The notes under the pieces: model-generated | Told to the model about the DNA's origin: nothing | The model's input: the letters and a program-made list of their open reading frames with translations, nothing else | The model's database searches: none | Assembly: GCA_036524855.1 (NCBI GenBank) | Contig: DATDBL010000191.1 | Span: forward strand, 1-24,000 | DNA: 24,000 nucleotides | Source: Aldersonia sp. | GTDB lineage: Bacteria > Actinomycetota > Actinomycetes > Mycobacteriales > Mycobacteriaceae | Reading direction: 5' to 3' | Program-made: the position numbers and the translations under genes | Shown: piece by piece, positions 2 through 20,822 of the stretch | Position numbering within the stretch: position 1 is the first letter of the stretch | How the letters are laid out: each line of letters opens with the position of its first letter

Positions 2-1483
2 GACCCCGGCGAGCGGCTCTACCGCACCGGCGACCTCGTCACCGCCACCCTCACCCGCGACACCGTCGAGTTGCGCTACCTGGGTCGCAGCGACAGCCAG
101 ATCAAGCTGCGCGGCAACCGGATCGAACCCGCCGAGATCGACGCCGCCCTGACGGCGCACCCGGCTGTCGCCCAATCCGCGACCCGTCCGCGCACCACAC
201 CCGCCGGCGACACCGTCCTCGTCTCCTATGTCGTCGCCGACACCACGTCCGATCCGAAGACTGCGTCCGATCCGAAGCGGCTGCGCGCCTTCGCAGCCGA
301 GTTCCTGCCGCGGCAGGTGATGCCCGCCGCGATCGTCGTCCTCGACCGGCTACCGCTCACCCCGAGCGGGAAGCTCGACGACAGGGCCCTTCCCACACCG
401 GACTTCACCGACACCGCCCGCTACCGCGCCCCGACCACGCCGGCCGAACAGGCTGTTGCGGAGATCTTCGCCGATATCCTCGGCGTCTCGAGCCCCGTCG
501 GAGCCGACGACGACTACTTCGACCTCGGCGGCAATTCCCTGTCCGCGGTCAGGGTGATCGCCGCCCTGCGCAAACGCCTGGACGCCACGGTGACCCTGCC
601 GGCGATACTGACCGACCCGACCCCTGCCGGCATCGCCGCTGCCCTCACCCGGACCGACGGTGCCGCGACAGAGCTCGAGGTGCTGCTGCCGATCCGACCG
701 CGCGGCACCCGTACACCGGTCTTCTTCGTCCATCCGATCGTCGGATTGTCCTGGTGTTACGGCGGATTCGCCAGATACCTCGGTGACGACCGGCCACTGT
801 ACGGCCTGCAGACGCCGAACGTACGGACCGAGGAGACCCCTGCGCAGTCGCTGTCCGAACTCGCGTCCCGCTATGTCACCGAGATTCGCAACATCGCACC
901 GGACGGCGCGTATCACCTGATCGGATGGTCGCTCGGCGGGGTGATCGCACACGAGATGGCCGTGCAGATACGCGCCTCCGGTCGCCACGTCGCCTCGCTG
1001 ACCATGCTCGATGCCTTCGCGACCCAACCCATCAGGGACGTCGCAGCCGAGCATCTGCAGGCCGCCGACCTGCTGGCGGGACTGGGCTACGCCGGTCCGC
1101 TCGACCTCGTCCACGGCTCGCTGCAGTCGTCGACGCTCGAGGACCTGCTCGCCGAGGTCGAGGGCCTGCTGCCGACGCTGAGCCCCGAGCACATCCGGCG
1201 ACTGGTCGCCGCTGCGAGCCACAATTCCCGGCTGCTACGCGAACACACACCGGGCGTATTCGACGGTTCCGCAATACTGTTCAGCGCTGCGAGAGACGGT
1301 CACGGGAGCGCCGCTGCCGATTCCTGGACCGGGCATGTGCACGCGGTCACGGATCACCCGGTCGAGAGCACGCACTGGCAAATCTGCGCACCCGACGCCC
1401 TCGCCGTGATCGGCCCGATCCTCGCCGACCGCCTTCGGCGCAGCGAAATCGTATCCCCGGCAATCGAACCGGAGGCTGACTGA
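2..1483 (+). CDS. Non-ribosomal peptide synthetase, C-terminal end of the final module (adenylation-domain tail, PCP, thioesterase); 5' partial
   Basis: Frame 2 is open from the window edge. Translation begins DPGERLYRTGDLV (adenylation core A8-like), then FLPRQVMPAAIVVLDRLPLTPSGKLD (A9/A10-like) and DYFDLGGNSLSAVRV (carrier-protein Ser site). It ends in an alpha/beta thioesterase domain with the GWSLGG nucleophile elbow. Stop TGA at 1481-1483. Confidence 0.9.
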   Translation, partial: DPGERLYRTGDLVTATLTRDTVELRYLGRSDSQIKLRGNRIEPAEIDAALTAHPAVAQSATRPRTTPAGDTVLVSYVVADTTSDPKTASDPKRLRAFAAEFLPRQVMPAAIVVLDRLPLTPSGKLDDRALPTPDFTDTARYRAPTTPAEQAVAEIFADILGVSSPVGADDDYFDLGGNSLSAVRVIAALRKRLDATVTLPAILTDPTPAGIAAALTRTDGAATELEVLLPIRPRGTRTPVFFVHPIVGLSWCYGGFARYLGDDRPLYGLQTPNVRTEETPAQSLSELASRYVTEIRNIAPDGAYHLIGWSLGGVIAHEMAVQIRASGRHVASLTMLDAFATQPIRDVAAEHLQAADLLAGLGYAGPLDLVHGSLQSSTLEDLLAEVEGLLPTLSPEHIRRLVAAASHNSRLLREHTPGVFDGSAILFSAARDGHGSAAADSWTGHVHAVTDHPVESTHWQICAPDALAVIGPILADRLRRSEIVSPAIEPEAD

Positions 1484-2469
1484 TGCGGATACGCGCCGTC
1501 GTCGTGAGCCTGATCGCCGCGCTGCTCATGGTGGGCGCGGCTCTTCCGGCGGCCGCGGCGGCGTCGACCGGCACGCTGGAACAGATCGAGCAAGTCGGCT
1601 CGCAGCGGTGGCGGATCTTCGTCCACTCCCCGGCGATGGGGCGCGACATCGAACTGGAAGTGCTTCGGCCGGCGGACACGAGTGTGCCGCATCCCACCCT
1701 CTATCTCCTCAACGGCGCCGGCGGCGGCGTCGACGGTGCGAACTGGTTGCGGCAGACCGACGTCGAGGGGTTCTTCGCCGACAAGAACGTCAACGTCGTC
1801 ATCCCCGTCGGGGGATACGCCGCGTACTACACCGACTGGCGGGCCGACGATCCGGTGCTCGGCCGCAACCAGTGGCAGACGTTCCTCACCCGGGAATTGC
1901 CGCCAGTGCTCGACGAGGTCCTGGGCACGACGGCTCGAAACGCGATTGCCGGGCTGTCCATGTCGGCGACGTCCGTGCTCGACCTCGCTATCCAGGCACC
2001 GGGCCTCTACCGCGGGGTCGCGTCCTACAGTGGCTGCGCGATGACGAGCGACCCACTAGGCCAGGTGCTGGTCCGCACCGTCGTCGAGGGCGGCGGGCAC
2101 GGCGACGCCGACAACATGTGGGGACCGCCATGGGACCCCGAATGGGCCGCACACGACCCGTATCTCAACGCCGAGAAGCTCCGCGGCGTGGCCCTCTACG
2201 TCTCGAACGCGACAGGCGTGCCCGGCCCCTACGAGCGCCCCGACGCGCCCCGCCCGTTGGGCGCACCCCCGCTTCCCGACCAGATCGTGATCGGCGGCGG
2301 CATCGAGGCCCTCACCAACGTCTGCGCACACCGCCTCGAGGAACGCTTCGAACGACTCGCCATTGCCGCGACGTTCGACTTCCGCCCCACCGGAACCCAC
2401 TCCTGGCTGTACTGGCAGGACGCCCTGCACGCGTCGTGGCCGCTGCTCGAGAAGGCGCTGCGCGGCTAG
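1483..2469 (+). CDS. Secreted antigen-85 / mycolyltransferase-family esterase
   Basis: Sec-type signal peptide MRIRAVVVSLIAALLMVGAALPAAAAAS. LYLLNGAGGG..GANW, the Ser elbow GLSMSAT and the C-terminal GTHSWLYWQ match Ag85/FbpA-type esterase motifs as I recall them. The ATG overlaps the NRPS stop (TGATG at 1481-1485). Confidence 0.8.
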   Translation: MRIRAVVVSLIAALLMVGAALPAAAAASTGTLEQIEQVGSQRWRIFVHSPAMGRDIELEVLRPADTSVPHPTLYLLNGAGGGVDGANWLRQTDVEGFFADKNVNVVIPVGGYAAYYTDWRADDPVLGRNQWQTFLTRELPPVLDEVLGTTARNAIAGLSMSATSVLDLAIQAPGLYRGVASYSGCAMTSDPLGQVLVRTVVEGGGHGDADNMWGPPWDPEWAAHDPYLNAEKLRGVALYVSNATGVPGPYERPDAPRPLGAPPLPDQIVIGGGIEALTNVCAHRLEERFERLAIAATFDFRPTGTHSWLYWQDALHASWPLLEKALRG

Positions 2470-3200
2470 CTGCTGCCGAACCACCGGTTCGCGTAGCGGC
2501 CGAAATCGCCCTGCGCTCCGCTGTACACGTTGAGGTCGACGCCCACCGCCACACCGGGAATCCGACCGCGGTCGGTGTATTGCCAGAACGTCCAGGTCGG
2601 CCACCCACCCGGCACCTCGGGCGCCGGATTCCCCCGGTAGTCGGCGATCCACAGCGGATAACCGGTGAACTGATTGGTGTTAGCCATCGCCGTCTTCCAG
2701 AAGTTCGGGTATGTGTAGATGATCGGCTGCCGGCCGGTGAGCGCGCGCACGGTGGTCAGGTAGCGATGCGTCCAGTCGATCAACGCGCCGGGCGGCAGTC
2801 CGCCCGAGTGTTCGAGATCCAGCACCGGCGGCAGATCGTCGGGCCCGTTGATGCCGAGGACCATCGTGGCGTAGTACGCGGCCTGCAACTCCGGCGACAG
2901 CTCTGGCCGCGCATAGTGGTACGCACCGCGCGCCATCCCCGCCAACCGCATCTGCAGGCAGTCCTGGATGAAGAACGGGTTGACGTAGTCGAGGCCCTCT
3001 GTCGCCTTGACCATGGCGAACTGGTGCCCGGAGTTGCGCACGGCGAACCAGTCGATCCCGGCCCCGCCCGGATGCTGCCACGAGGCGACGTCGGGCCCAC
3101 GTGGCTCGGCACCGGCGCTTCCCGGACCGGAAACCGCCAGCAGGGCAGCAAGAACCATCGGGCCGGCAGCGACGAGGCCACGGCGCACAACCGCGTTCAT
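2466..3200 (-). CDS. Secreted GH25 muramidase (lysozyme)
   Basis: GPDVASWQHPGGAGIDWFAVRNSGHQFAMVKATEGLDYVNPFF is a typical GH25 N-terminal catalytic region. I prefer the ATG at 3200 (MNAVVRRGLVAAGPMVLAALLAVSGPGSAGA, a signal peptide) over the ORF-track start at 3278. Confidence 0.8.
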   Translation of the reverse strand: MNAVVRRGLVAAGPMVLAALLAVSGPGSAGAEPRGPDVASWQHPGGAGIDWFAVRNSGHQFAMVKATEGLDYVNPFFIQDCLQMRLAGMARGAYHYARPELSPELQAAYYATMVLGINGPDDLPPVLDLEHSGGLPPGALIDWTHRYLTTVRALTGRQPIIYTYPNFWKTAMANTNQFTGYPLWIADYRGNPAPEVPGGWPTWTFWQYTDRGRIPGVAVGVDLNVYSGAQGDFGRYANRWFGSS

Positions 3201-3325
3201 GCCGACCGAGGCTAGCGGTTCGGGGGCTGCCGCGCAGCCGATCGCAATGAGGTTGCTCGGTTCTTCATCCACCCGCAACGTGCTCGTTCTAGGATCGGAT
3301 ACCTCTTGATGAGGGGTTGTGAACG

Positions 3326-4864
3326 ATGAGCGAGGCGCATCCGTCGACCACCGGATCGACCCGACGGCAGTTTCTGCAGCGCGCGGCGACGGTCGGCGGT
3401 GCGGCGGCCTTCACCGCCTGGGCGAACCCCATCATCGAACGGGCGCACGCGGCCGACCCAAACGGACACGGAGCCCTCGCCGACATCGAGCACTTCGTGT
3501 TCCTCATGCAGGAGAACCGCTCCTTCGACCATTACTTCGGCACGCTCTCGGGGGTGCGCGGGTTCGCCGACCCCTCGCCGTTCTGGCAACAGTACGGCTG
3601 GGCGCCGGGGGTGGGGCCGACGCCGACCGGCTACCTCGAGCCGTTTCGCCTGAACACGACGCTCGGCACGAGCCTGTCAGGGGAATGCGTCAACGACCCG
3701 GCACACGACTGGGCGGGAATGCACGGCATGTGGAACGGCGGCATTATGGATCGCTGGCTGCCGGTGCAGATCGCGCACGCGGGGCCGTTGAATGGGCCGG
3801 CGACGATGGGGTACCTGACCCGCGCCGACATCCCCGTCCACTACGACCTCGCCGACGCGTTCACCGTCTGCGACGGCTACTTCTGCTCGGTGCTCGGGCC
3901 CACCGACCCGAACCGGCTGTACTGGATCAGCGCCACCATCGACCCGGACGGCACCGGCGGCGGACCATTGGTGGAGACGCCGACGCTCATCCCGAAGAAC
4001 GTCTACACCTGGCGCACCATGCCGGAGAACCTGGAGGCGGCCGGCATCAGCTGGAAGGTGTACCAGAACCGCGATGTGGGGCCGGTGTCCAGCGTCATTC
4101 TCGACGGCATGCTCGGCTCGTTCAAGCAGTTCAACACGCCGGGGACGAGCCTCTACGCGCGGGGAATCGATCCCGTGTTCCCGTTCCACTTCGAGGCCGA
4201 CGTGCGGGCGGGCACACTGCCGGCGGTCTCGTGGGTGGTGCCGTCGATCTTCACCTGCGAGCACCCGGCGCTGCCGCCCACCGCTGGGGCGGTCGGGATC
4301 GTGCAGGTCCTGGACATCCTCACCGCCAACCCCGCGATGTGGGAGAAGACCGCGCTGATCGTGACCTACGACGAGAACGGAGGCTTCTTCGACCACGTCG
4401 TTCCCCCGACCGCACCGCCCGGGACGCCCGGCGAGTACCTCACCGTGCCGCTGGACTCGGTGATGTCCTCCGACGGCATCACCGGCCCGATCGGCCTCGG
4501 GTTCCGGGTGCCGACGCTGGTCATCTCGCCGTACTCGCGCGGTGGCCTGGTGGCCTCTCAGGTGTTCGATCACACCTCGCAATTGCGCTTGCTGGAAACC
4601 CGATTCGGGGTGGAGGTACCGAACCTGACCGCCTGGCGGCGGTCGGTGGCGGGCGACATGACCTCGACCTTCGACTTCGGTGCGACGCCGGACCCGGTCC
4701 GGCCGGCGTTGGGGGTGGCCTTCGATCCGCTCGGTCCCAGGGTGCAGCAGTGCGTCCCCAATGCCCTGATCGGCACCCTCAACCGCGGCATCCCGTACCC
4801 GGTGCCGCCCAATGCCATGCCGGTGCAGGAGCCGGGGTCGCGGCGGGCACCGTCGGGGGTGTGA
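3326..4864 (+). CDS. Tat-exported phospholipase C / phosphoesterase family protein (mycobacterial PlcA-D-like)
   Basis: Twin-arginine signal [23 protein letters not shown]. The phosphoesterase-family motif [19 protein letters not shown] is present. At 512 aa it is similar in size to mycobacterial Plc proteins. GAGGGG lies about 10 nt upstream of the ATG. Confidence 0.88.
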
Positions 4865-12962: not shown

Positions 12963-13361
12963 GTGCTGGTCGTCGCTGTGTTCCTGTTCGTCCTCGCCGT
13001 TGCCGCGCTCGCGACCGGGGTCGCCGGGCTCACCGGCCGGTTGCCGCGCAATCGCTGGGTGGGTGTGCGCACCGAGCAGACCGTCGACGACGACCGCGCG
13101 TTCGCGCTCGCCAACCGCATCGCCGCACCGACCACCATCGCCGCCGGGGTGCTGCTCGCAATCGGCGGCACGGTCGCGCTGCTGTTCGACGGGCTGTTCG
13201 GAATGCTCGCGATCGTCGCGACAATCATCGCCGCCGTCGCCACAGCGGGTGCCGGTGCGTCGCTGGGCGCCCGCGCCGCCGCCACGGCGACCGTCGGTAC
13301 CGGATCGTGCGGCCACGCATGTGGGTCGTGCACTCTGGCCGGCGGCTGCGAACGCGCCTGA
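12963..13361 (+). CDS. SdpI/YhfL-like small membrane protein with a Cys-rich C-terminal tail
   Basis: GTG start. Three hydrophobic spans are present. GRLPRNRWVGVRTEQT resembles the SdpI-family loop motif. The C-terminus is GSCGHACGSCTLAGGCERA. TATCCT (12950-12955) ends 7 nt before the GTG, so a leaderless transcript is possible. Confidence 0.6.
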   Translation: MLVVAVFLFVLAVAALATGVAGLTGRLPRNRWVGVRTEQTVDDDRAFALANRIAAPTTIAAGVLLAIGGTVALLFDGLFGMLAIVATIIAAVATAGAGASLGARAAATATVGTGSCGHACGSCTLAGGCERA

Positions 13362-13531: not shown

Positions 13532-13573
13532 TCAGCGCCTTCAACTCAGCGCCTTCAACTCAGCGCCTTCAAC
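13532..13573. repeat. Perfect 3 x 14-bp tandem repeat TCAGCGCCTTCAAC, covering the stop codon of the aminotransferase gene
   Basis: The copies are at 13532-13545, 13546-13559 and 13560-13573. On the minus strand this reads GTTGAAGGCGCTGA x3. The gene's TGA (13557-13555) lies in the GTTGA at the start of the second copy, right after the junction with the first. Confidence 0.95.
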
Positions 13574-14592
13574 ACCGCCGCGCTGGCTTCCGAGTCGCCG
13601 ACCGCGATGCGGGCGGACCCGTCGGGATAGGCCTTCACCGAGATGCCGGCCACCCGCAGGCGGGAGGCGATGTCGGGTCCGTCGAGGTAAAGAAAATTCG
13701 CGTGACTGCGCGGCACGTGCACACCCGCACGCAGCAGCGCCGCCCGCAACCGCTCCCGCTCGGCCGTGATCCGCGCCACCCGGTCGCGCACCTCCGACTC
13801 CGCCGCATACGACGCGGACACCGCCGCCACCGCGACCGCGCCCATCCCGAACGGCACCTGCCACCGGCGCACCCGGTTGGCGAGTTCGAAGCCCGCGAAC
13901 GCGTAGCCGATCCGCAGCCCCGCCAGGCCGTAAGCCTTGGAGAACGTCCGCAGCACGAGCAGGTTGGCGTGGCGGCGCACGAGCCCGACGGTGTCGAGGA
14001 CGTCCGCGCCGGCGAGGAACTCGACGTACGCCTCGTCGAGCACCACCGTCACCCGCCGCGGCACGGCTGCGAGGAACGCCGCGACCTCGTTGGCGGAGAC
14101 GAGCGTGCCGGTCGGGTTGTGCGGCCGGCACAGCACCACCACCCGGGTGCGGGAATCGATCGCCCGGACCATCGACCAGAGGTCCTGGCGGCCCTCGGGA
14201 TCCAGGTCGACGGCGATCGCCCGCACGTCCAGCATCTTCGCCATGATCGGGTAGCCGTCGAAGGTCGGGCGGGCGAACAGGATCGACTCACCCGGTCGCA
14301 GCAGGGCATGCATCAGTTGCATCGCCACGCCCGTGGCGCCCGACCCGACCACGACCTGGTCCGGATGCACCCCGACGTGGTTGGCGATCACCCGCGGCAA
14401 CCGCTGCGGCAGGAACTCCGGATAGCGATTCGCTCGACCCATCACGCGCTCGAGTTCGCGCCGCACCGACGGTAACGGTGGATAAGGGTTCTCGCTCAAC
14501 GTCAGGTCGAACCGCTCGGTGACGCCGACACCGTCCGCCGTCTCGAAGTACGGCCGGGTCTCGTCGAAGGCGACCGTGCCGCGCCCGCTCAT
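13555..14592 (-). CDS. Class I/II-fold PLP aminotransferase, HisC/Pat-like (histidinol-phosphate / aromatic aminotransferase family)
   Basis: LSENPYPP, PHNPTG and the Lys motif RTFSKAYGLAGLRIGY are typical of HisC-type enzymes. I choose the ATG at 14592 (MSGRG...) because it overlaps the upstream gene's TGA (ATGA at 14589-14592). The longer ORF-track N-terminus is Arg-rich junk. Confidence 0.85.
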   Translation of the reverse strand: MSGRGTVAFDETRPYFETADGVGVTERFDLTLSENPYPPLPSVRRELERVMGRANRYPEFLPQRLPRVIANHVGVHPDQVVVGSGATGVAMQLMHALLRPGESILFARPTFDGYPIMAKMLDVRAIAVDLDPEGRQDLWSMVRAIDSRTRVVVLCRPHNPTGTLVSANEVAAFLAAVPRRVTVVLDEAYVEFLAGADVLDTVGLVRRHANLLVLRTFSKAYGLAGLRIGYAFAGFELANRVRRWQVPFGMGAVAVAAVSASYAAESEVRDRVARITAERERLRAALLRAGVHVPRSHANFLYLDGPDIASRLRVAGISVKAYPDGSARIAVGDSEASAAVLKALS

Positions 14593-15629
14593 GCCGGCTT
14601 CGCTCCCCATCGCACCGCGGCCGCCCCCGCGTAGTCGCCGGCATGCGCGAACGCCGACATCAGCACCAGCGACCCGTTCGCGATCCGGCCCGCCCGGTTC
14701 TCGGTGTCGAGCGTGACGGGAATGCCCGCGCCGAACAGGTTTCCGCACTCGTCGAAGGTGTCCGGGTGCTTGCCGCCCGGAATCTGCAACGCGTCGTGCC
14801 AGTTTCGCAGAAACAGCCGGTTTGGCTGGTTGCTCACGAAAACGTCGACGTCGCCCGGCTTGGCGTCGATCTCCTCGAGCACCGCGTAACCGACCTCGGG
14901 CACCAACCGGTTTCCGCGGGTGAACACCTTCGCGATCTTCGACTCGGTGAAACCGATGGTGGGCTGACCGATTCCGGGCTCCCAGTACTTGCGCGGGACC
15001 GCGTCCTTCGGCAGCCCGACGGCCTCGAAGGTCATGTCACCGGCAAACTCCGGGTACGTTCGGCCGACGACGCCGAGGATCGGCGCGTCCTCGTTCTTCA
15101 CCAGCAGGCCGACGCCGCACCCGTCGCCCGGAACCGGGGCGAACGCAAGCTTGCGGATCTCGCTCTGTGTCATCGAGGGACCGGCCGCGTTCTGTACCGC
15201 CGCGATCATGGCGGTCTTGGCGTCGGTGGTCTGCAGGATCTTCTGCGCCAGCGCCATCATGTGCGGGAACGAGGCGCAGCCGCCGTTGTGCACGTCGATC
15301 ACCCAGTCCGGTCGCAGGCCGAGCCGCCGCGCGACCTCGGGCCCCGAGCCGAGCACCGGGTTGTCCGGCAGCTGCACGTGGGTGAGCAGCACGTCCACGT
15401 TGCCGATCGTGTCGCGGCCGTGCCGCTCGATCAGCGGCGCGACGGCGCGTTCGACCATGTCGACCGCGGTCTCGTCCCGTGCGACGTGGTGGCGGTAGCT
15501 GGGCGAGCGGAACATGACGTTCTTCGCCATCCGCTCCGACCGCGAGAACTGCGTGAAATATTCGGTCGGAACCCGATTCTCGGGCAGGTAGCTGGCGACG
15601 TCGACCAGGCTGACGGTGGGGAACTCCAT
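14589..15629 (-). CDS. KAS III (FabH)-like thiolase-fold enzyme with Asn in place of the catalytic His
   Basis: The protein is collinear with E. coli FabH from memory. The Cys elbow DVHNGGCASF aligns with DVAAACAGF, and PGDGCGVGLL with FGDGAGAAVL. VFVSNQPN aligns with WLVPHQAN, and ECGNLFGAGIP with RHGNTSAASVP. The N-to-N spacing is exactly the 30 residues of FabH His244 to Asn274. Confidence 0.85.
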   Translation of the reverse strand: MEFPTVSLVDVASYLPENRVPTEYFTQFSRSERMAKNVMFRSPSYRHHVARDETAVDMVERAVAPLIERHGRDTIGNVDVLLTHVQLPDNPVLGSGPEVARRLGLRPDWVIDVHNGGCASFPHMMALAQKILQTTDAKTAMIAAVQNAAGPSMTQSEIRKLAFAPVPGDGCGVGLLVKNEDAPILGVVGRTYPEFAGDMTFEAVGLPKDAVPRKYWEPGIGQPTIGFTESKIAKVFTRGNRLVPEVGYAVLEEIDAKPGDVDVFVSNQPNRLFLRNWHDALQIPGGKHPDTFDECGNLFGAGIPVTLDTENRAGRIANGSLVLMSAFAHAGDYAGAAAVRWGAKPA

Positions 15630-15630
15630 G

Positions 15631-16287
15631 CTATTTCATCCAATCCGGCTTGATGGGCAGGCCGTGGCTCGCGCGGTACTCGCAGATGGCCTTGAGGGTG
15701 TCCATTTCCATTTGGTGACCGGCGTAGAAGAGATCCCAACCGTCACCGACCCACACCGGACGCTTGGGCGGCGCCGTCTCCGGATACGGGTTCTCGTCGT
15801 AGAAGGGGTGCTTGCAGTTGACCCAGGTGACCACGCTGCCCGGCTTGTTGAGCACCACCTGCGCGTCGACGACCCGCATCAGGTAGACCATCCACAGGTG
15901 GAACCCCTGGTCCCAGGCGCAGTGGTAGTCGACGGTCATCGCATCGGGGTTCGCGATCGTGCGGGTGTAGCACCTGGTCTGCCCACCGACCCGGTCGAAC
16001 GACTCCCACAGGCCGGGCTCGTCGGTCTCGACGAACCCGCGCAGGCTGTAGGTCCACTCCTCCAGCGACCGGGTGTCGGCGAGGTACTCGTACACCTCGC
16101 GCGGCGGCGCGTCGATGTAGGCGTTGATCGGGCAGAACTGCCCGTAGATCTGGTCGTGCGGGTACACCGCGCGGGTCATCTCGAACACGATCTCCTTGGC
16201 AACGTCCTTGTCGGAGGTCTCGATCCGGGTGACTCCGGGGATGTCTTCGCCGATGTCGGACAGGGCGGGCAGGGCACTGGTGGTCAT
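15631..16287 (-). CDS. Hypothetical protein, tentatively SRPBCC (START / Bet v1 / polyketide-cyclase-like) superfamily
   Basis: 218 aa. The ATG at 16287 is preceded by AAGGAG and overlaps the upstream TGA (ATGA at 16284-16287). CPINAYIDAPPREVYEYLADTRSLEEWT resembles the N-terminal strand-helix signature of SRPBCC proteins. The family call is tentative; the CDS itself is well supported. Confidence 0.6.
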   Translation of the reverse strand: MTTSALPALSDIGEDIPGVTRIETSDKDVAKEIVFEMTRAVYPHDQIYGQFCPINAYIDAPPREVYEYLADTRSLEEWTYSLRGFVETDEPGLWESFDRVGGQTRCYTRTIANPDAMTVDYHCAWDQGFHLWMVYLMRVVDAQVVLNKPGSVVTWVNCKHPFYDENPYPETAPPKRPVWVGDGWDLFYAGHQMEMDTLKAICEYRASHGLPIKPDWMK

Positions 16288-17981
16288 GCGGATGCTCCTT
16301 CGGTGTGGGCGGGCAGGGCAGCGAGAAAGGGCACGAACGGCGGGATCTCGTCGGGATCGCAGTCCAACGCGAGGAACGCGGGCCCCTCGGCGTCGGCGAG
16401 GTCGCGCAAGCCGACGTCGAGTTCGGCGAGTGTTGCGGCGGTGCGCACCTTCAGGCCGGGGAACATGGCGGCGACGCCCTCGCCGATGCGCGTGGGCGCA
16501 AACCGGTTGAAGCTGTATCCCCCTCCGTAGTAGAGCTGTTCGCGGGTCACGCACATGGCGTGGGCGTTGTTGTTGAACACCATGAACGTGATCGGCAGTC
16601 GGTGCTCGACGGCGGTGTGGATCTCCATGCCGTGCATGAAGAACGCGCCGTCGCCGGCGATCACCACCGTGCGCTCCTCCGGTCGGGCGAACGCCGCGCC
16701 GACCCCGGCGCCGAAGCTGTAGCCCATCCCTCCCATGCCGAGCGCGACGACGAAGCGTCCGTCGCGCGGGATCGGCAGGTGGTGCACCACCGCGGCGCCG
16801 GTGTTGCCGGCATCGGCGAACACCGCGGTGCCGGGCCGCAGCGTCGCGCCGATCGCCTCGACGGCGTCGCGGTAGCGCAGACCCGGCCCGTCCGCCGGCG
16901 GCACCGCCAGCGGCCCGACCGGCTCTCCGCCTCGCGGCCGCGTCTCCTCGTCGAGCGCCTCGGCGAGATCACGCAGGTCGCGGCGCAGATCGGTGCTGGT
17001 CGCGTGGGCCGCGTCGACGTGCGGTGCGTCCGCGCCGATGCTCAGCAGCGTCGTGGCAGCGAACGCCGGGTCGAGGCCGCCGCGACCGGTCACCGGCATC
17101 CTGGTGCCGACGAACAGGCAGGCCGCCGACCCGCGGATCGCGTCGCCGAGTTCGGTGTGCCCCATGATCCCCGCGACTCCGCAGTAGCCGGGTTCGAGAG
17201 GACCATAGACGTCCTTGGCGTCGGGCAGCACGCCCACAGACGCGTCGAGTGTCGTCGCGAGGTCGCGCAGCTCGGCGCGGGCATCGTTGCGGGCGACCTG
17301 GTCCCCGGCGACGATCACGATCTTGCCGGTGCGGCGCCGGGCGGCCAGACTCGCCCGCAGCCGCAGCAGCCGCGACGTGTCGTGCGCATGCCGGATCGGC
17401 GGCGGCACGAAGGGCGGCAGATCGACCTCGGCCTGCTGGACGTCCTTGGGCAGCAACAGCACCGCCGGTCCGCCGGAGAGGGCGGCGGTGACCGCGCGGC
17501 GCAAGCGGTCGGCGATGTCGGCGGGGTCGTCGACACGGGCGCAGTAGCGCGTGATCGCGCCGAACAGCGCGGTCGCATCGATGGTCCCGGCGCGTCCGCT
17601 GGTGTCCTGGAAGGCGCCGTGCCCCTCGAGCGGCCTCGGCGGCTGCCCGACCAGCGCCAGCACCGGTACCCGGGACTCGAAAGATTCCGACAGCCCCGCA
17701 ACGAGATTCATCGCGCCGCCACCGGAGGTCGCAGCGACGACGCCGAGGCCGGACCGGACACGGGCGTACCCGTCGGCCATCGTCGCGGCGCCGAACTCGT
17801 GCTTGGCGACAACGGCGGTGATGCCGGGAGAGCCGGCTCGCCTCGATAAAGCGGCGGCGTCGTAGAGATCCTCGATGTTGGCGCCGTCGACCCCGAACAC
17901 GGTGTCGACGCCCAGTGCCGTGATCGCGTCGACGAGGTAGTCCACAACTCGGCCCGGGCGCGCGGAAGTCTGCTTGGTCAT
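16284..17981 (-). CDS. Thiamine-diphosphate-dependent enzyme, acetolactate-synthase / carboligase-like
   Basis: 565 aa. The catalytic-Glu region is VAKHEFGAATMADGYARV. The ThDP motif is GDG-X24-NN (IAGDGAFFMHGMEIHTAVEHRLPITFMVFNNN). The ATG at 17981 is preceded by GAGGAG. The ORF-track start at 18287 would add an Arg/His-rich extension overlapping the anti-sigma gene. Confidence 0.85.
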   Translation of the reverse strand: MTKQTSARPGRVVDYLVDAITALGVDTVFGVDGANIEDLYDAAALSRRAGSPGITAVVAKHEFGAATMADGYARVRSGLGVVAATSGGGAMNLVAGLSESFESRVPVLALVGQPPRPLEGHGAFQDTSGRAGTIDATALFGAITRYCARVDDPADIADRLRRAVTAALSGGPAVLLLPKDVQQAEVDLPPFVPPPIRHAHDTSRLLRLRASLAARRRTGKIVIVAGDQVARNDARAELRDLATTLDASVGVLPDAKDVYGPLEPGYCGVAGIMGHTELGDAIRGSAACLFVGTRMPVTGRGGLDPAFAATTLLSIGADAPHVDAAHATSTDLRRDLRDLAEALDEETRPRGGEPVGPLAVPPADGPGLRYRDAVEAIGATLRPGTAVFADAGNTGAAVVHHLPIPRDGRFVVALGMGGMGYSFGAGVGAAFARPEERTVVIAGDGAFFMHGMEIHTAVEHRLPITFMVFNNNAHAMCVTREQLYYGGGYSFNRFAPTRIGEGVAAMFPGLKVRTAATLAELDVGLRDLADAEGPAFLALDCDPDEIPPFVPFLAALPAHTEGASA

Positions 17982-18037
17982 ACACGCTCCTCTGCCCGCG
18001 CGGGTGGCGCGGGCTGGTGGATGGTTCTGGCTGTGAA

Positions 18038-18062
18038 TACGAGACAGCCGTCCCGGCGGTTC
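18038..18062 (-). promoter_or_regulatory. Candidate ECF (SigL-type) promoter upstream of the four-gene cassette
   Basis: The minus strand reads tcGAACC-GCCGGGACGGCTGTCT-CGTAttCAC, that is GAACC-N16-CGT. It lies in the 89-nt gap between the anti-sigma stop (18071) and the ThDP-enzyme ATG (17981). It shares GTCTCGTnnnCAC with the promoter candidate upstream of the sigma gene. Confidence 0.6.
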
Positions 18063-18070
18063 GATCGGGG

Positions 18071-18811
18071 TCAGAGCACGCTGGTCAGCAGGACCCGATC
18101 GGTGGCGGTGGAGCGGATGCCGACCTGCCGGACGTCGGAGGGCGGCACGTCGATCATGGCGGACTCGGTGACGGTGTCTCCGGGGGAGGCCTTCCAGGTC
18201 GCGACGTGCGACTGCCCACCGTCGGAGGTGCCCACCCACAGCGAGTACTCGCCGGTGTAGGACCGGCCGGTCTCGTCGTAGCGGCACACCATGTCGATGC
18301 GGGTGCCGCCGGAGGGATCGGCGAACAGTTCGAACTCCGCCGACAGCGGGGATGGCACGAGCTTGTCCATCGAACGGGACGCGACGAGTTCGGCCTGCGT
18401 CGTGGGGGTGCTGCCACCACTACCACCACCGCCACCACTGCCACCACCGTCGGCGGACCCGGCGAGGGTCACCGGGACGGCGATCGCCACCGCGGCGGCG
18501 GCCGCTGCCACGGCGGCACCGACCGAAACCCACAGGCCACGGCGGCGACGTCGCTGTGCTGCGGCCGCGAGCCGGGGCAGCAGATCTTCGGGTTCCGGGT
18601 CGGATTCCGGTTCGTCTTCGAGCATCGCCAGCGCGGTGTCGCGGGGGACGAGCGCAAGCATCCCAGGGACGCCGGCGAGTTCGGCCACCGCCTCGCGGCA
18701 GCGCGCGCAGTCCTCGAGGTGGTGTTCGAACCGGCGCCGGTCGGTGGGGGACAGCGCGCCGAGCACGTAGGCGGCGTCCCAGGTGGCGAACTCGTCGCCG
18801 GGCTCGGTCAT
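18071..18811 (-). CDS. rslA: Membrane-spanning zinc-binding (ZAS) anti-sigma factor, RslA-like
   Basis: The HxxxCxxC motif is present (HHLEDCARCREAV), preceded by WDAAYVLGALSPTDRRRFE. One TM span is present (LWVSVGAAVAAAAAAVAIAVPV), followed by a Gly/Ser linker and an extracytoplasmic domain ending RVLLTSVL. This matches the architecture and motifs of M. tuberculosis RslA as I recall it. The ATG overlaps the sigma gene's TGA (ATGA at 18808-18811). Confidence 0.8.
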   Translation of the reverse strand: MTEPGDEFATWDAAYVLGALSPTDRRRFEHHLEDCARCREAVAELAGVPGMLALVPRDTALAMLEDEPESDPEPEDLLPRLAAAAQRRRRRGLWVSVGAAVAAAAAAVAIAVPVTLAGSADGGGSGGGGGSGGSTPTTQAELVASRSMDKLVPSPLSAEFELFADPSGGTRIDMVCRYDETGRSYTGEYSLWVGTSDGGQSHVATWKASPGDTVTESAMIDVPPSDVRQVGIRSTATDRVLLTSVL

Positions 18812-19311
18812 TTCGTCACCCCCAGCTCCTGCATCGCGAGCCGAAGCGCACGCATCCCGTAGTGCATGCGTGACTTCACGGTACCCTCGGGAATGTCCAG
18901 GTCAGCGGCGATCTGCTGGGTGGAGTACCCGCCGTAGTAGGAGCGGACGATGACGTCGCGGTGGTCCTGCGACAGTCGCGACAGCGCCTCGGCAACAACC
19001 CACGAGTCGACCGCCCGGTCGGTCGCGTCGGCGCTCGGCCGCTCCGGGGGCGCGTCGGTGCGCACCTCCCGGCGGCTGCGCGCGCTGCGGTGTTCGTCGA
19101 ACGCGAGGTTGCGCGCGACCGTGAACAGCCACCCCCGCGCCGACGCGGTCGACTGGTCGAGCACCTTCGGGTGCTGCCAGGCCCGCAACAGGGTCTCCTG
19201 CACGATGTCCTCCGCCCGCTGTCGATCCCCCACCAGCCCGACGGTGTAGCGCCAGAGCACCGCTGCGTGCTGTTCGTACAGCACCCGCATCAGCTCGGCC
19301 TGATCGGGCAT
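18808..19311 (-). CDS. sigL: ECF sigma factor, SigL-like
   Basis: LMRVLYEQHAAVLWRYTVGLVGDRQRAEDIVQETLLRAWQHP, WLFTVARN and EGTVKSRMHYGMRALRLAMQELGVTK closely track M. tuberculosis SigL from memory. I place the start at ATG 19311, which is preceded by GGAGGTGAGC. The ORF-track start at 19428 would put the promoter candidate inside the coding sequence. Confidence 0.85.
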   Translation of the reverse strand: MPDQAELMRVLYEQHAAVLWRYTVGLVGDRQRAEDIVQETLLRAWQHPKVLDQSTASARGWLFTVARNLAFDEHRSARSRREVRTDAPPERPSADATDRAVDSWVVAEALSRLSQDHRDVIVRSYYGGYSTQQIAADLDIPEGTVKSRMHYGMRALRLAMQELGVTK

Positions 19312-19330
19312 GCTCACCTCCGGCGTGTCC

Positions 19331-19355
19331 ACGAGACGCGCGACCGACTGGTTCA
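19331..19355 (-). promoter_or_regulatory. Candidate autoregulatory ECF (SigL-type) promoter
   Basis: The minus strand reads TGAACC-AGTCGGTCGCGCGTCT-CGTggaCAC, that is TGAACC-N16-CGT. It ends about 20 nt upstream of the sigL-like ATG. It matches the TGAACC / CGT-type consensus I recall for mycobacterial SigL. Confidence 0.65.
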
Positions 19356-19451
19356 CCGCGTCGGCGCGGCCCTCACCCGAGCCGGATGAGATCCGCGTCC
19401 GTCGGTGGAATAGCGGCTCGCCGCGCATACGTTTACACCTACGCTCGCAGG

Positions 19452-20822
19452 GTGAAGAAGATCCCGCACCCCGACGGCGTTCTCACCCCGGCCTACACCG
19501 GCCGCCTCGCAACCGACCCGATCCCCGCGCTGCGCCTGCCCGACTCGCCCCGCGAGCCGGAGGAGGCCTACCAGTACATCCACGACGAGCTGATGCTCGA
19601 CGGAAGCTCACGGCTCAACCTCGCCACGTTCGTCACCACCTGGATGGACGAGCACGCGGGCAAGCTTATGGCAGAGACGTTCGACAAGAACATGATCGAC
19701 AAGGACGAGTATCCGGCGACCGCGGCGATCGAGACCCGCTGCGTGAACATGGTCGCGGACCTGTTCCATGCTCCGGGGCTGGACCCCACCGACCCGACAT
19801 CGGCGACGGGCGTGTCGACCATCGGGTCGAGCGAGGCCGTCATGCTCGGCGGGCTGGCGCTGAAGTGGCGCTGGCGGGCCGGGGGCAAGGGGACCGGCAC
19901 GCCGAATCTGGTGCTGGGCAGCAACGTTCAGGTCGTGTGGGAGAAGTTCTGCCGTTATTTCGAGGTGGAGCCGCGCTACCTGCCGATGGCGCACGACCGC
20001 TACGTCATCACCCCCGAGCAGGTGCGTGAGGCCGTGGACGAAAACACGATCGGCGTCGTCGTCATCGTCGGGACGACCTTCACCGGCGAACTCGAGCCGG
20101 TCGCGGAGATCGCGAAGACCCTCGACGAACTCGCCGCGGGCGGCGGACCCGATGTCCCGATCCACGTCGACGGGGCCAGCGGCGGATTCGTCGTGCCGTT
20201 CCTGTACCCCGACCTGGAGTGGGACTTCCGGGTGCCGCGGGTGGCGTCGATCAACGTCAGCGGCCACAAGTACGGGCTGACGTACCCGGGCATCGGGTTC
20301 GTCGTGTGGCGCGACAAGGAGTGCCTACCCGAGGACCTCGTGTTCCGGGTTAATTACCTCGGCGGCGACATGCCGACCTTCACGCTCAACTTCTCCCGCC
20401 CGGGCAACCAGGTGGTGGGGCAGTACTACAACTTCCTGCGCCTCGGCCGCGAGGGCTACACCGACATCATGACGGCGCTGCGCGACACGGCCGTGCGGAT
20501 CTCCTCGGCAATCGCGACGATCCCGGAGTTGAAGGTCGTCGCCGACGGCACCGCGATCCCGGTAATCGCCTTCACCCTGGCCGACGAACGGCCCTACACG
20601 GTCTTCGACGTCTCGCATGAACTGCGTGCCCGCGGCTGGCAGGTCCCCGCCTACACCATGCCCGACGACGCCACCGACGTTGCGGTGCTGCGGATCGTCG
20701 TCCGCGAGGGCTTCAGCGCGGACCTCGGCCACCTGCTCGTCCACTCGATCCGCGAGGTGATCACCGAACTCGACCAGATCAAGCCGCAGAAGCACTCGGA
20801 CACAACGCATTTCGCGCACTGA
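19452..20822 (+). CDS. gadB: Glutamate decarboxylase (PLP-dependent)
   Basis: Near-collinear with M. tuberculosis GadB from memory. Shared stretches include APAYTGR, IHDELMLDGSSRLNLATFVTTWMD, FDKNMIDKDEYPATAAIE, SINVSGHKYGLTYPGIGFVVWR and FSRPGNQVVGQYYNFLRLGR. I chose GTG 19452 by N-terminal alignment. The ATG at 19386 is the ORF-track alternative. Confidence 0.93.
   Translation: MKKIPHPDGVLTPAYTGRLATDPIPALRLPDSPREPEEAYQYIHDELMLDGSSRLNLATFVTTWMDEHAGKLMAETFDKNMIDKDEYPATAAIETRCVNMVADLFHAPGLDPTDPTSATGVSTIGSSEAVMLGGLALKWRWRAGGKGTGTPNLVLGSNVQVVWEKFCRYFEVEPRYLPMAHDRYVITPEQVREAVDENTIGVVVIVGTTFTGELEPVAEIAKTLDELAAGGGPDVPIHVDGASGGFVVPFLYPDLEWDFRVPRVASINVSGHKYGLTYPGIGFVVWRDKECLPEDLVFRVNYLGGDMPTFTLNFSRPGNQVVGQYYNFLRLGREGYTDIMTALRDTAVRISSAIATIPELKVVADGTAIPVIAFTLADERPYTVFDVSHELRARGWQVPAYTMPDDATDVAVLRIVVREGFSADLGHLLVHSIREVITELDQIKPQKHSDTTHFAH

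Follow-up and report, generated by a model that had tools for sequence, protein, structure and literature searches.

Bacterial carbazoles have so far been treated, to our knowledge, as rare metabolites of Streptomyces. The core of carquinostatin A is assembled by CqsB7, CqsB3, CqsB1 and CqsB2, in that order (PMC7466098). NzsD, NzsH, NzsJ and NzsI are the counterparts in the neocarazostatin A pathway. The carbazomycin pathway is presumed to draw its acyl donor from primary metabolism (PMC11610953). Lipocarbazoles are cited as antioxidant carbazoles from Tsukamurella pseudospumae (PMC7466098, ref. 7; PMC11387468) and have been classed as 3-oxygenated (PMC7466098). For mono-oxygenated carbazoles, the cyclisation is held to require a reductive variant, listed in a review as still unidentified (PMC7466098). 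Here, we analyse a stretch of 24,000 nucleotides from Aldersonia sp. (assembly GCA_036524855.1, contig DATDBL010000191.1, positions 1 to 24,000), called the window below, with a G+C content of about 69%. Its minus strand carries a four-gene cassette at 13555–17981, which encodes a thiamine diphosphate (ThDP) enzyme, an SRPBCC-like cyclase, an enzyme resembling ketoacyl synthase (KAS) III and an aminotransferase. Judged by homology, this cassette is a widespread variant of the known carbazole core and not the orphan pathway that a preliminary description of the window had proposed. We consider it probable that the cassette belongs to a six-gene unit, in which an autoregulated SigL-type sigma factor and the cognate anti-sigma factor are followed by a sigma-driven minimal carbazole core, and that the product is a 1-alkyl-2-methyl-3(,4)-oxygenated carbazole.

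The set is regarded as a homologue of the CqsB7-B3-B1-B2 core because of structure matches, pairwise identities, catalytic residues and scores below the NCBIfam cut-offs. Four minus-strand open reading frames (ORFs) were found at 13555–17981, and both their translations and their Pfam domains agree with the families and the packing given in the preliminary description. The ThDP enzyme (16284–17981) has TPP_enzyme_N, M and C domains. It is followed by the cyclase (15631–16287; 218 aa), the KAS III-like enzyme (14589–15629), which has an ACP_syn_III_C domain, and a HisC-family aminotransferase (13555–14592) with a class I/II aminotransferase domain. The junctions, read from the sequence, are also as described before: gcATGAcc at 16287–16284 between the ThDP and cyclase genes, TAG-c-ATG (aaaTAGcATGgag) at about 15633–15627 between the cyclase and KAS genes, and gcATGAgc at 14592–14589 between the KAS and aminotransferase genes. 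The overlap of the ThDP stop and the cyclase start was also found in other genera. Inside the four-gene block, we found no sigma-70-like promoter and no excess of terminator-like sites over shuffled expectation. In the 5-kb flanks on both sides in the window, and likewise in the loci that we surveyed, neither a PP-binding protein nor a second KAS III was detected, and the Pfam domains of the flanks, compared with the cqs locus, included no prenyltransferase or P450 alongside the window cassette. The preliminary description had noted the lack of both a carrier protein and a regulator. The former stands; the latter does not, as genes for an extracytoplasmic function (ECF) sigma factor and a zf-HC2 anti-sigma factor lie upstream. 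A more fitting description of the block is a unit of six genes that has two promoters and comprises the sigma and anti-sigma genes and the four enzyme genes.

Searches against solved structures were decisive for the identification. Pfam alone fails to name the cyclase, returning only a sub-threshold Polyketide_cyc2 match, and NCBIfam contains no model for it. CqsB2 (6ipv) was the sole significant sequence match in the PDB (E = 6.7e-46), and pairwise alignment with CqsB2 gave 40% identity over 205 aa (E = 6e-51). An AlphaFold model of the protein (pLDDT 81, pTM 0.82) retrieved 6ipv as its top fold match (E = 1e-18, TM 0.69). The next match was at about 1e-7, and generic Bet v1/START proteins lay at least 11 orders of magnitude behind CqsB2. 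Five residues have been proposed to take part in the cyclisation by CqsB2, namely Tyr144, Tyr172, His206, Glu209 and Glu105 (PMC7466098). In the alignment, the first four are identical in the window protein, and Glu105 is conservatively replaced by Asp. Sequence and model thus identify the product of 15631–16287 as a predicted CqsB2/NzsI-type cyclase ('carbazole synthase') of the Bet v1/SRPBCC fold.

The ThDP enzyme contains an intact GDG-X24-NN motif (AGDGAFFMHGMEIHTAVEHRLPITFMVFNN) and a catalytic Glu in the context KHEFGAA, confirming in translation what had been reported for it. It aligned with CqsB3 over its full length at 38% identity (E = 4e-90). In homology, GDG-X24-NN motif and catalytic Glu, it corresponds to the ThDP component of the Cqs/Nzs/Cbz carbazole core. 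The best PDB matches were BbmA (E = 2e-53) and CsmA (E = 1.5e-51), with acetolactate synthases at 7e-36 or weaker. The aminotransferase is 45% identical to CqsB7 (E = 1e-91). Its best PDB match was the phenylalanine/aromatic aminotransferase 4r2n of Mycobacterium tuberculosis (2.6e-56), and genuine HisC followed at 1e-35. From its sequence, it is an aromatic-type member of the HisC family, similar to CqsB7/NzsD. Homology places it in the CqsB7/NzsD lineage, in which Trp would be converted to indole-3-pyruvate.

The KAS III-like enzyme scored 103 bits against CqsB1 (24% identity) and 52 bits (23% identity) against CqsB5, the classical KAS III of the cqs cluster. QPN and GN(L/M)F motifs are common to the window enzyme and CqsB1. 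Its placement in the CqsB1/NzsJ lineage is supported at this level of comparison. As the preliminary description had observed, the His of FabH is missing; the position is occupied by Asn (VSNQPN), Cys118 and Asn297 are kept, and the triad reads Cys118-Asn267-Asn297. Asn was found at this position in all of the 85 clade copies examined and also in two metagenomic relatives, whereas CqsB1 and a Sorangium homologue retain His. The Cys-Asn-Asn triad is a real, clade-defining feature. With respect to the Cys-His-Asn triad of the carbazole core, the lineage scores favour CqsB1, yet identity is low and Asn is invariant in the clade.

The preliminary description did not recognise the combination of the four enzymes as a described pathway. 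However, the nearest characterised relative of each protein is a core enzyme of carquinostatin or neocarazostatin biosynthesis. The same description had named correspondence with a known biosynthetic gene cluster, or a lack of co-conservation, as results that would speak against it. Correspondence was found at the level of homology (carquinostatin, neocarazostatin and carbazomycin cores), while co-conservation of the four genes was borne out. Its enzyme logic, with the aminotransferase providing a 2-oxo acid, the ThDP enzyme an adduct, the KAS enzyme an acyl group and the SRPBCC-like protein cyclisation, was essentially right and matches carbazole biosynthesis (PMC7466098).

In the pathway that we propose from the sequences, the aminotransferase would turn an aromatic amino acid, most likely L-tryptophan, into the 2-oxo acid (indole-3-pyruvate). 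The ThDP enzyme would then decarboxylate pyruvate and join the hydroxyethyl unit to the indole-3-pyruvate-type 2-oxo acid. Cys118 of the KAS enzyme would be acylated by an acyl-CoA or an acyl-acyl carrier protein (ACP) from fatty-acid metabolism, followed by decarboxylative condensation with the acid formed by the ThDP enzyme. Finally, the CqsB2-like cyclase would form and aromatise the third ring. Since both a dedicated ACP and a starter KAS are missing, we suggest that the acyl group is borrowed from fatty-acid metabolism. A fatty acyl donor and the lack of a dedicated starter predict 1-alkyl-2-methyl-oxygenated carbazoles. The expected product is lipophilic and redox-active, a phenol or ortho-quinone of the carbazoquinocin/carazostatin/lipocarbazole type. 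The most likely candidate appears to be a lipophilic 1-alkyl-2-methyl-oxygenated carbazole akin to the lipocarbazoles of Tsukamurella. In their original report, lipocarbazoles are said to carry a long alkyl chain. Tsukamurella sp. 8F has the same four-gene cassette, and, by analogy, lipocarbazoles may be made by this type of cassette. A cyclised tricyclic carbazole is likelier than the acylated acyloin or amino-alcohol envisaged earlier because the cyclase has the catalytic residues of CqsB2. The scytonemin and sattabacin/xenocyloin pathways, which had been named as precedents, are more distant analogies than the carbazole pathway.

Directly upstream of the cassette and on the same strand lie genes for a SigL-type ECF sigma factor (18808–19311) and an RslA-like anti-sigma factor (18071–18811), and both are co-conserved in most loci. 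The sigma factor has Sigma70_r2 and r4 domains and scored 250 bits on NCBIfam NF007227/PRK09645, above the curated cut-off of 202. PRK09645 is presumably the SigL model of CDD. The protein is 59% identical to the one encoded by the sigma gene at the secY-adk-mapA-sigL-rslA position of M. attenuatum. The ATG of the anti-sigma gene overlaps the sigma stop codon. Its membrane-anchored zf-HC2 product contains HHLEDCARC (H-x3-C-x2-C), one hydrophobic membrane helix and a C-terminal extracytoplasmic part. The true start of the sigma gene is probably the ATG at 19311 (167 aa), which stands behind a ggaggtg ribosome-binding site. We prefer it to 19428, the start of a mechanical 206-aa ORF, because a promoter motif sits at 19355–19328; the longer ORF includes this motif of the sigma gene itself and overlaps a divergent glutamate decarboxylase gene.

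The motif ahead of the sigma gene, TGAACC-N17-CGTGGA (19328–19355, minus strand), is of the ECF type and probably confers autoregulation. A second motif on the same strand, cGAACC-N16-CGTATT (18036–18063), begins 8 nt past the anti-sigma stop and about 80 nt ahead of the ThDP ATG. We searched for GAAC[CT]-N16-CGT in the 110 nt upstream of the ThDP gene (20–130 nt) in 81 loci. The strict motif was present in 72 of them, at an expectation of 0.008 per 100 nt. Flanking positions that the pattern did not impose were conserved as well: GAAC was preceded by T in 97%, and CGT was followed by A in 96%. Ahead of the sigma gene, TGAAC[CT]-N15-17-CGT was found in 65 of 67 related loci. The consensus across loci is TGAAC(C/T)-N16-CGTA(T) before the cassette and TGAAC(C/T)-N16-17-CGT(G/T) before the sigma gene. 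The SigL consensus of M. tuberculosis is given as TGAACC at −35 and CGTGTC at −10 in Table 1 of a secondary source (PMC2703886). The motif across loci agrees with the −35 hexamer listed there and, at −10, with its CGT core, and the sigma-gene motif of M. attenuatum, TGAACC-N16-CGTGTC, equals this published consensus. Where a sigma gene is present, the cassette motif was found in 63 of 66 loci. It was absent in five sigma-less loci (L004, L008, L084, L089 and L090), which belong to Tsukamurella, M. tokaiense, Gordonia sp., R. aetherivorans and S. piniterrae.

Judging from the conservation of the motif, it is very probable that the neighbouring SigL-type sigma factor targets the cassette directly. 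The features of a SigL-type regulon are present: a sigma factor above the family cut-off, a transmembrane anti-sigma factor with H-x3-C-x2-C encoded directly downstream, and predicted promoters that bear the motif. The anti-sigma factor would free the sigma factor upon an envelope or redox signal, leading to expression of the cassette. An attractive candidate role for the product would be that of a radical-scavenging lipid, made when the zinc-finger anti-sigma factor lets go. More tentatively, and as an idea that we hold to be possible but on the unlikely side, the SigL-RslA stress system of Mycobacteriales may ancestrally have driven the synthesis of a lipocarbazole-like antioxidant, a long-chain carbazole that resides in the membrane and that the four enzymes would build from tryptophan, pyruvate and a fatty acyl thioester. 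The Cys-Asn-Asn KAS and the Asp-variant cyclase would then be the machinery for mono-oxygenated long-chain carbazoles, and M. tuberculosis would have lost the cassette while keeping the sigma factor.

The cassette is not an orphan in its distribution either, being among the most widely conserved versions of the carbazole core. The cyclase is encoded in at least 597 species genomes (one genome per species), and those kept are mostly from Nocardia. More than 1000 database clusters share 62–88% identity with it, from Nocardia, Rhodococcus, Gordonia, Williamsia, Tsukamurella, Mycolicibacterium, Mycolicibacter and Mycobacterium. At 50% clustering, the family comprises about 150 representatives, many of them fragments. 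Among the matches listed, the closest genomes are from Aldersonia, at 87–88% identity, and M. tuberculosis is not among the cyclase matches. A look-up of the exact cyclase sequence of the window gave no match, which places the source strain outside the collection searched. We surveyed 84 loci, 78 of which contain all four genes. The order ThDP-cyclase-KAS-aminotransferase, on one strand and compact, is kept in 77 of these 78, an arrangement far beyond chance. This gene-neighbourhood check had been suggested in the preliminary description, and the gene order proved to be conserved. The sole change of order was found in A. stalactiti, where the aminotransferase gene precedes the KAS gene, and Antrihabitans sp. 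YC2-6 has a second KAS copy downstream of the aminotransferase gene (variant loci: L075 12817–13758; L052 10773–12761). One further locus (L085) encodes a protein 100% identical to CqsB2, with CqsB1 to CqsB7 in the published order. A metagenomic contig (L088 5038–15932) encodes a cyclase 47% identical to that of the window, in the order aminotransferase-ThDP-cyclase-KAS and with the KAS in the Asn form. There, the cassette is followed by genes for two ACPs, an HMG-CoA synthase, two enoyl-CoA hydratases and two ketosynthases, a beta-branching cassette that suggests an elaborated side chain.

In Nocardiaceae, the block lies between an AlgH-like gene and leuS, as it does in the window. In M. attenuatum, it follows secY-adk-mapA-sigma-anti-sigma and precedes a MarR gene. 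In Mycolicibacter terrae (L091 2567–9722), the cassette stands directly behind secY-adk-mapA, with no sigma or anti-sigma gene between, and thus occupies the place of sigL-rslA in M. attenuatum and M. tuberculosis. We take MSMEG_1486-1487 to be sigL-rslA of M. smegmatis, which leaves a gap of exactly four genes before Ms_1492; the cassette may fill this gap. The paper with this numbering gives no gene identities for Ms_1488-1491, and MSMEG_1488 is mentioned elsewhere only as up-regulated. 'Ms_1488' has its own promoter fragment, Ms_1492 is the homologue of Rv0737, and the site of the M. attenuatum cassette corresponds to that between the M. tuberculosis rslA and Rv0737 homologues (PMC13002591). 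Apart from the isolation report on lipocarbazoles, we found no paper that ties the cassette or carbazole genes to Mycobacteriales, which is weak evidence, as subscription journals were scantly covered and some searches were limited to the top-ranked of several thousand papers, none of which contained the carbazole term.

Transport genes accompany the cassette in several lineages. In Nocardia (L021 5773–8188 and 65–67 other loci), a divergent three-gene block of 2.6 kb separates the anti-sigma and ThDP genes. Besides an ABC ATPase and an ABC-2 permease, it encodes a protein of 186 aa that has no match in Pfam, and it is likely the exporter for the cassette product. This type of block is absent from the window. 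M. tokaiense has an MmpL protein and a Methyltransf_2-type (phenol-type) O-methyltransferase encoded beside the cassette. An MmpL gene is also found there in S. piniterrae and R. aetherivorans, an ABC/FtsX exporter in Mycolicibacter terrae and an ABC-2 permease in Gordonia (exporter loci: L090 12758–16080; L004 4320–6686; L008 about 14420–16603; L091 9719–12948; L092 9847–10896). The exporters and the O-methyltransferase fit an exported or envelope-located lipophilic phenol, and in these related genomes the linked ABC or MmpL transporters would probably export the product or place it in the envelope. A response regulator/histidine kinase pair replaces the ECF pair in Tsukamurella (L089 6239–8271) and Gordonia (L092 3054–5113). 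The TGAACC...CGT motif is absent from the Tsukamurella locus, the one of the two that was checked. The regulator has apparently been swapped between lineages.

Several observations weigh against a SigL-controlled carbazole cassette. Everything beyond homology is inference, for the product, the substrate and the transcript alike. One of the five cyclase residues is changed (Glu105 to Asp), and no experimental identification of the gene cluster for lipocarbazoles was found in the literature searched. The substrate cannot be read from the sequence, and Phe or Tyr would lead to a ring system other than carbazole. This bears on an alternative in which the same enzyme families act on another 2-oxo acid, phenylpyruvate or 4-hydroxyphenylpyruvate, or in which the KAS enzyme is non-decarboxylative, so that a naphthalene-type ring or an acylated acyloin results. 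The reaction of the KAS enzyme could indeed differ from that of CqsB1, as it is only 24% identical to it and has Asn for the catalytic His in every clade member, which sets the clade apart. Moreover, the closest solved relative of the aminotransferase is annotated as a phenylalanine aminotransferase, and the ThDP enzyme has BbmA and CsmA as its nearest solved relatives. Nevertheless, we consider this alternative unlikely. The cyclase shares 40% identity and four of five catalytic residues with CqsB2, the aminotransferase and the ThDP enzyme share 45% and 38% with the Trp-specific Cqs enzymes, and long-alkyl carbazoles are cited from a Mycobacteriales genus that bears the cassette (PMC7466098). 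A primary-metabolism operon, in which an acetolactate synthase for branched-chain amino acids, a FabH for fatty acids and a histidinol-phosphate aminotransferase for histidine are clustered by chance, is highly improbable. Pfam and NCBIfam do place three of the proteins in the IlvB, FabH and HisC superfamilies, and the block sits among the housekeeping genes leuS, gadB and the AlgH-like gene. However, the scores stay below the curated cut-offs: 196 against 538 bits for the ThDP enzyme (TIGR00118), which is far under every NCBIfam acetolactate synthase cut-off, 85 against 249 bits for the KAS enzyme (FabH, NF006829), and 250 against 277 bits for the aminotransferase (hisC, TIGR01141). No small subunit of acetohydroxyacid synthase is present, the KAS enzyme lacks the His required for decarboxylation of malonyl-ACP, and the fourth gene encodes a specialised cyclase whose sole solved relative is CqsB2.

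Control by the adjacent sigma factor has also been weighed against mere adjacency, with the cassette being read from another promoter or by read-through. Motif matches do not prove function, and the −35 element of the window cassette is CGAACC rather than TGAACC. Cassettes with no sigma gene occur in Tsukamurella, Gordonia, Mycolicibacter terrae, M. tokaiense and a Streptomyces, and in Nocardia the transporter block parts the sigma pair from the cassette. Seven loci retain the motif although no sigma gene was detected (four with full flanks and three with short flanks), and Gordonia and Tsukamurella carry a two-component system in place of the ECF pair; the sigma link is therefore considered lineage-specific. 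On the other hand, more than 60 divergent loci have the bipartite motif, at a fixed spacing, ahead of the sigma gene and again ahead of the cassette, its conservation extends to positions beyond the search pattern, and Nocardia has kept it even though transporter genes are inserted. The five sigma-less loci without the motif also fit a functional link, though seven loci with no detected sigma gene retain it. Simple adjacency seems quite improbable to us, and less so only than the chance clustering of housekeeping genes. We thus retain the sigma-driven carbazole core as the preferred explanation for the six-gene unit.

On the flanks of the unit in the window are the AlgH-like gene and gadB on one side and leuS on the other. 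The product of gadB (19386–20822, divergent from the sigma gene) is a glutamate decarboxylase by the TIGR01788 equivalog (647 bits). An amine/aldehyde route that includes this adjacent pyridoxal phosphate-dependent decarboxylase and a Zn-dependent alcohol dehydrogenase was considered and rejected because of the equivalog match and because Aldersonia and Antrihabitans were the only genera that showed the linkage. A perfect tandem repeat of three 14-bp units (13532–13573; TCAGCGCCTTCAAC on the plus strand) lies at the 3′ end of the aminotransferase gene, the stop codon of which arises at the first repeat junction. With a single repeat copy, the protein would end in ...VLKALTRL rather than ...VLKALS. 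The plus strand encodes, at 12963–13361, a small membrane protein that is rich in Cys at its C-terminus (CGHACGSCTLAGGC) and matches no family, and it is kept beside leuS in most Nocardiaceae loci at 44–58% identity. The left end of the window (71–4864 region) contains the C-terminal part of a nonribosomal peptide synthetase (AMP-binding_C, PCP and thioesterase), which extends beyond the window, followed by an esterase (1483–2469), a GH25 muramidase (2466–3278, minus strand) and a phospholipase-C-type phosphoesterase (3326–4864). No tRNA genes were found in the window.

If the proposed function is correct, the largest and most conserved branch of the carbazole pathway would be that of Mycobacteriales, an order with members of clinical relevance among Nocardia, Gordonia, Tsukamurella and the non-tuberculous mycobacteria. 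The cassette would provide the first candidate genes for lipocarbazoles and a natural Cys-Asn-Asn variant of the KAS III type for mechanistic study. It would also give a SigL-type ECF sigma factor a concrete output: under envelope or redox stress, cells would form a lipophilic radical scavenger or a redox-active quinone. Routine annotation as 'acetolactate synthase / SRPBCC / FabH / HisC' conceals a recognisable biosynthetic core, and it is this generic because all four proteins fall short of the curated NCBIfam cut-offs. What appears new is the lack of a dedicated ACP and of tailoring genes, the Cys-Asn-Asn triad of the KAS enzyme, and the SigL-like motif before both the cassette and the sigma pair.

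Among the known systems, the xenocyloin, sattabacin and scytonemin pathways share with the window cassette the ThDP carboligation of an aromatic 2-oxo acid, and the xenocyloin pathway also uses KAS III-like acyltransferases. In contrast, they have no CqsB2-type cyclase, and their enzymes were not among the best solved or characterised relatives of the window proteins. On the regulatory side, the resemblance is to SigL-RslA of M. tuberculosis: the window sigma factor passes PRK09645, the anti-sigma factor combines zf-HC2 with one helix, and the TGAACC...CGT motif is shared. Synteny supports this through M. attenuatum, where the pair is at secY-adk-mapA and the cassette before the Rv0737-like MarR gene (PMC13002591). 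In the window, the pair is instead found between the AlgH-like gene/gadB and leuS, unlike the M. tuberculosis pair beside secY. The SigL regulon of M. tuberculosis comprises sigL-rslA, mpt53, pks10-pks7 and Rv1139c-Rv1138c and contains no such cassette (PMC4105308).

The closest biosynthetic counterparts are the Cqs and Nzs cores, with the same four families as mutual best characterised matches and the cyclase fold and its catalytic Tyr/Tyr/His/Glu kept. The logic is alike too, running through transamination, ThDP carboligation with pyruvate, KAS-type condensation and cofactor-free cyclisation (PMC7466098). However, these pathways have an ACP (CqsB6/NzsE), a starter KAS III (CqsB5/NzsF), a prenyltransferase and a P450, all of which the window cassette lacks. 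In that subtype, the ACP and the starter KAS III supply 3-hydroxybutyryl-ACP, a supply that is missing here. The KAS triad is Cys-His-Asn in CqsB1 and Cys-Asn-Asn in the window clade, and the gene order is B1-B2-B3...B7 in cqs as against ThDP-cyclase-KAS-aminotransferase. Unlike Cqs and Nzs, the window cassette is under predicted ECF sigma control and is conserved vertically across an order rather than sporadically. The carbazomycin cluster of Streptomyces (cbzB-F) sets a precedent for a minimal core, as it is compact, has no ACP and shares the ThDP-cyclase-KAS III order in cbzD-E-F (PMC11610953). It differs in having an additional FAD protein and an O-methyltransferase and in the upstream position of its aminotransferase, and its KAS is 55–57% identical to NzsJ/CqsB1 (table in PMC11610953), compared with 24% to CqsB1 for the window enzyme. 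In its predicted product class, the cassette would resemble the lipocarbazoles, which come from a Mycobacteriales producer, a long-chain antioxidant carbazole being the expected output of a core with no dedicated short-chain starter system.

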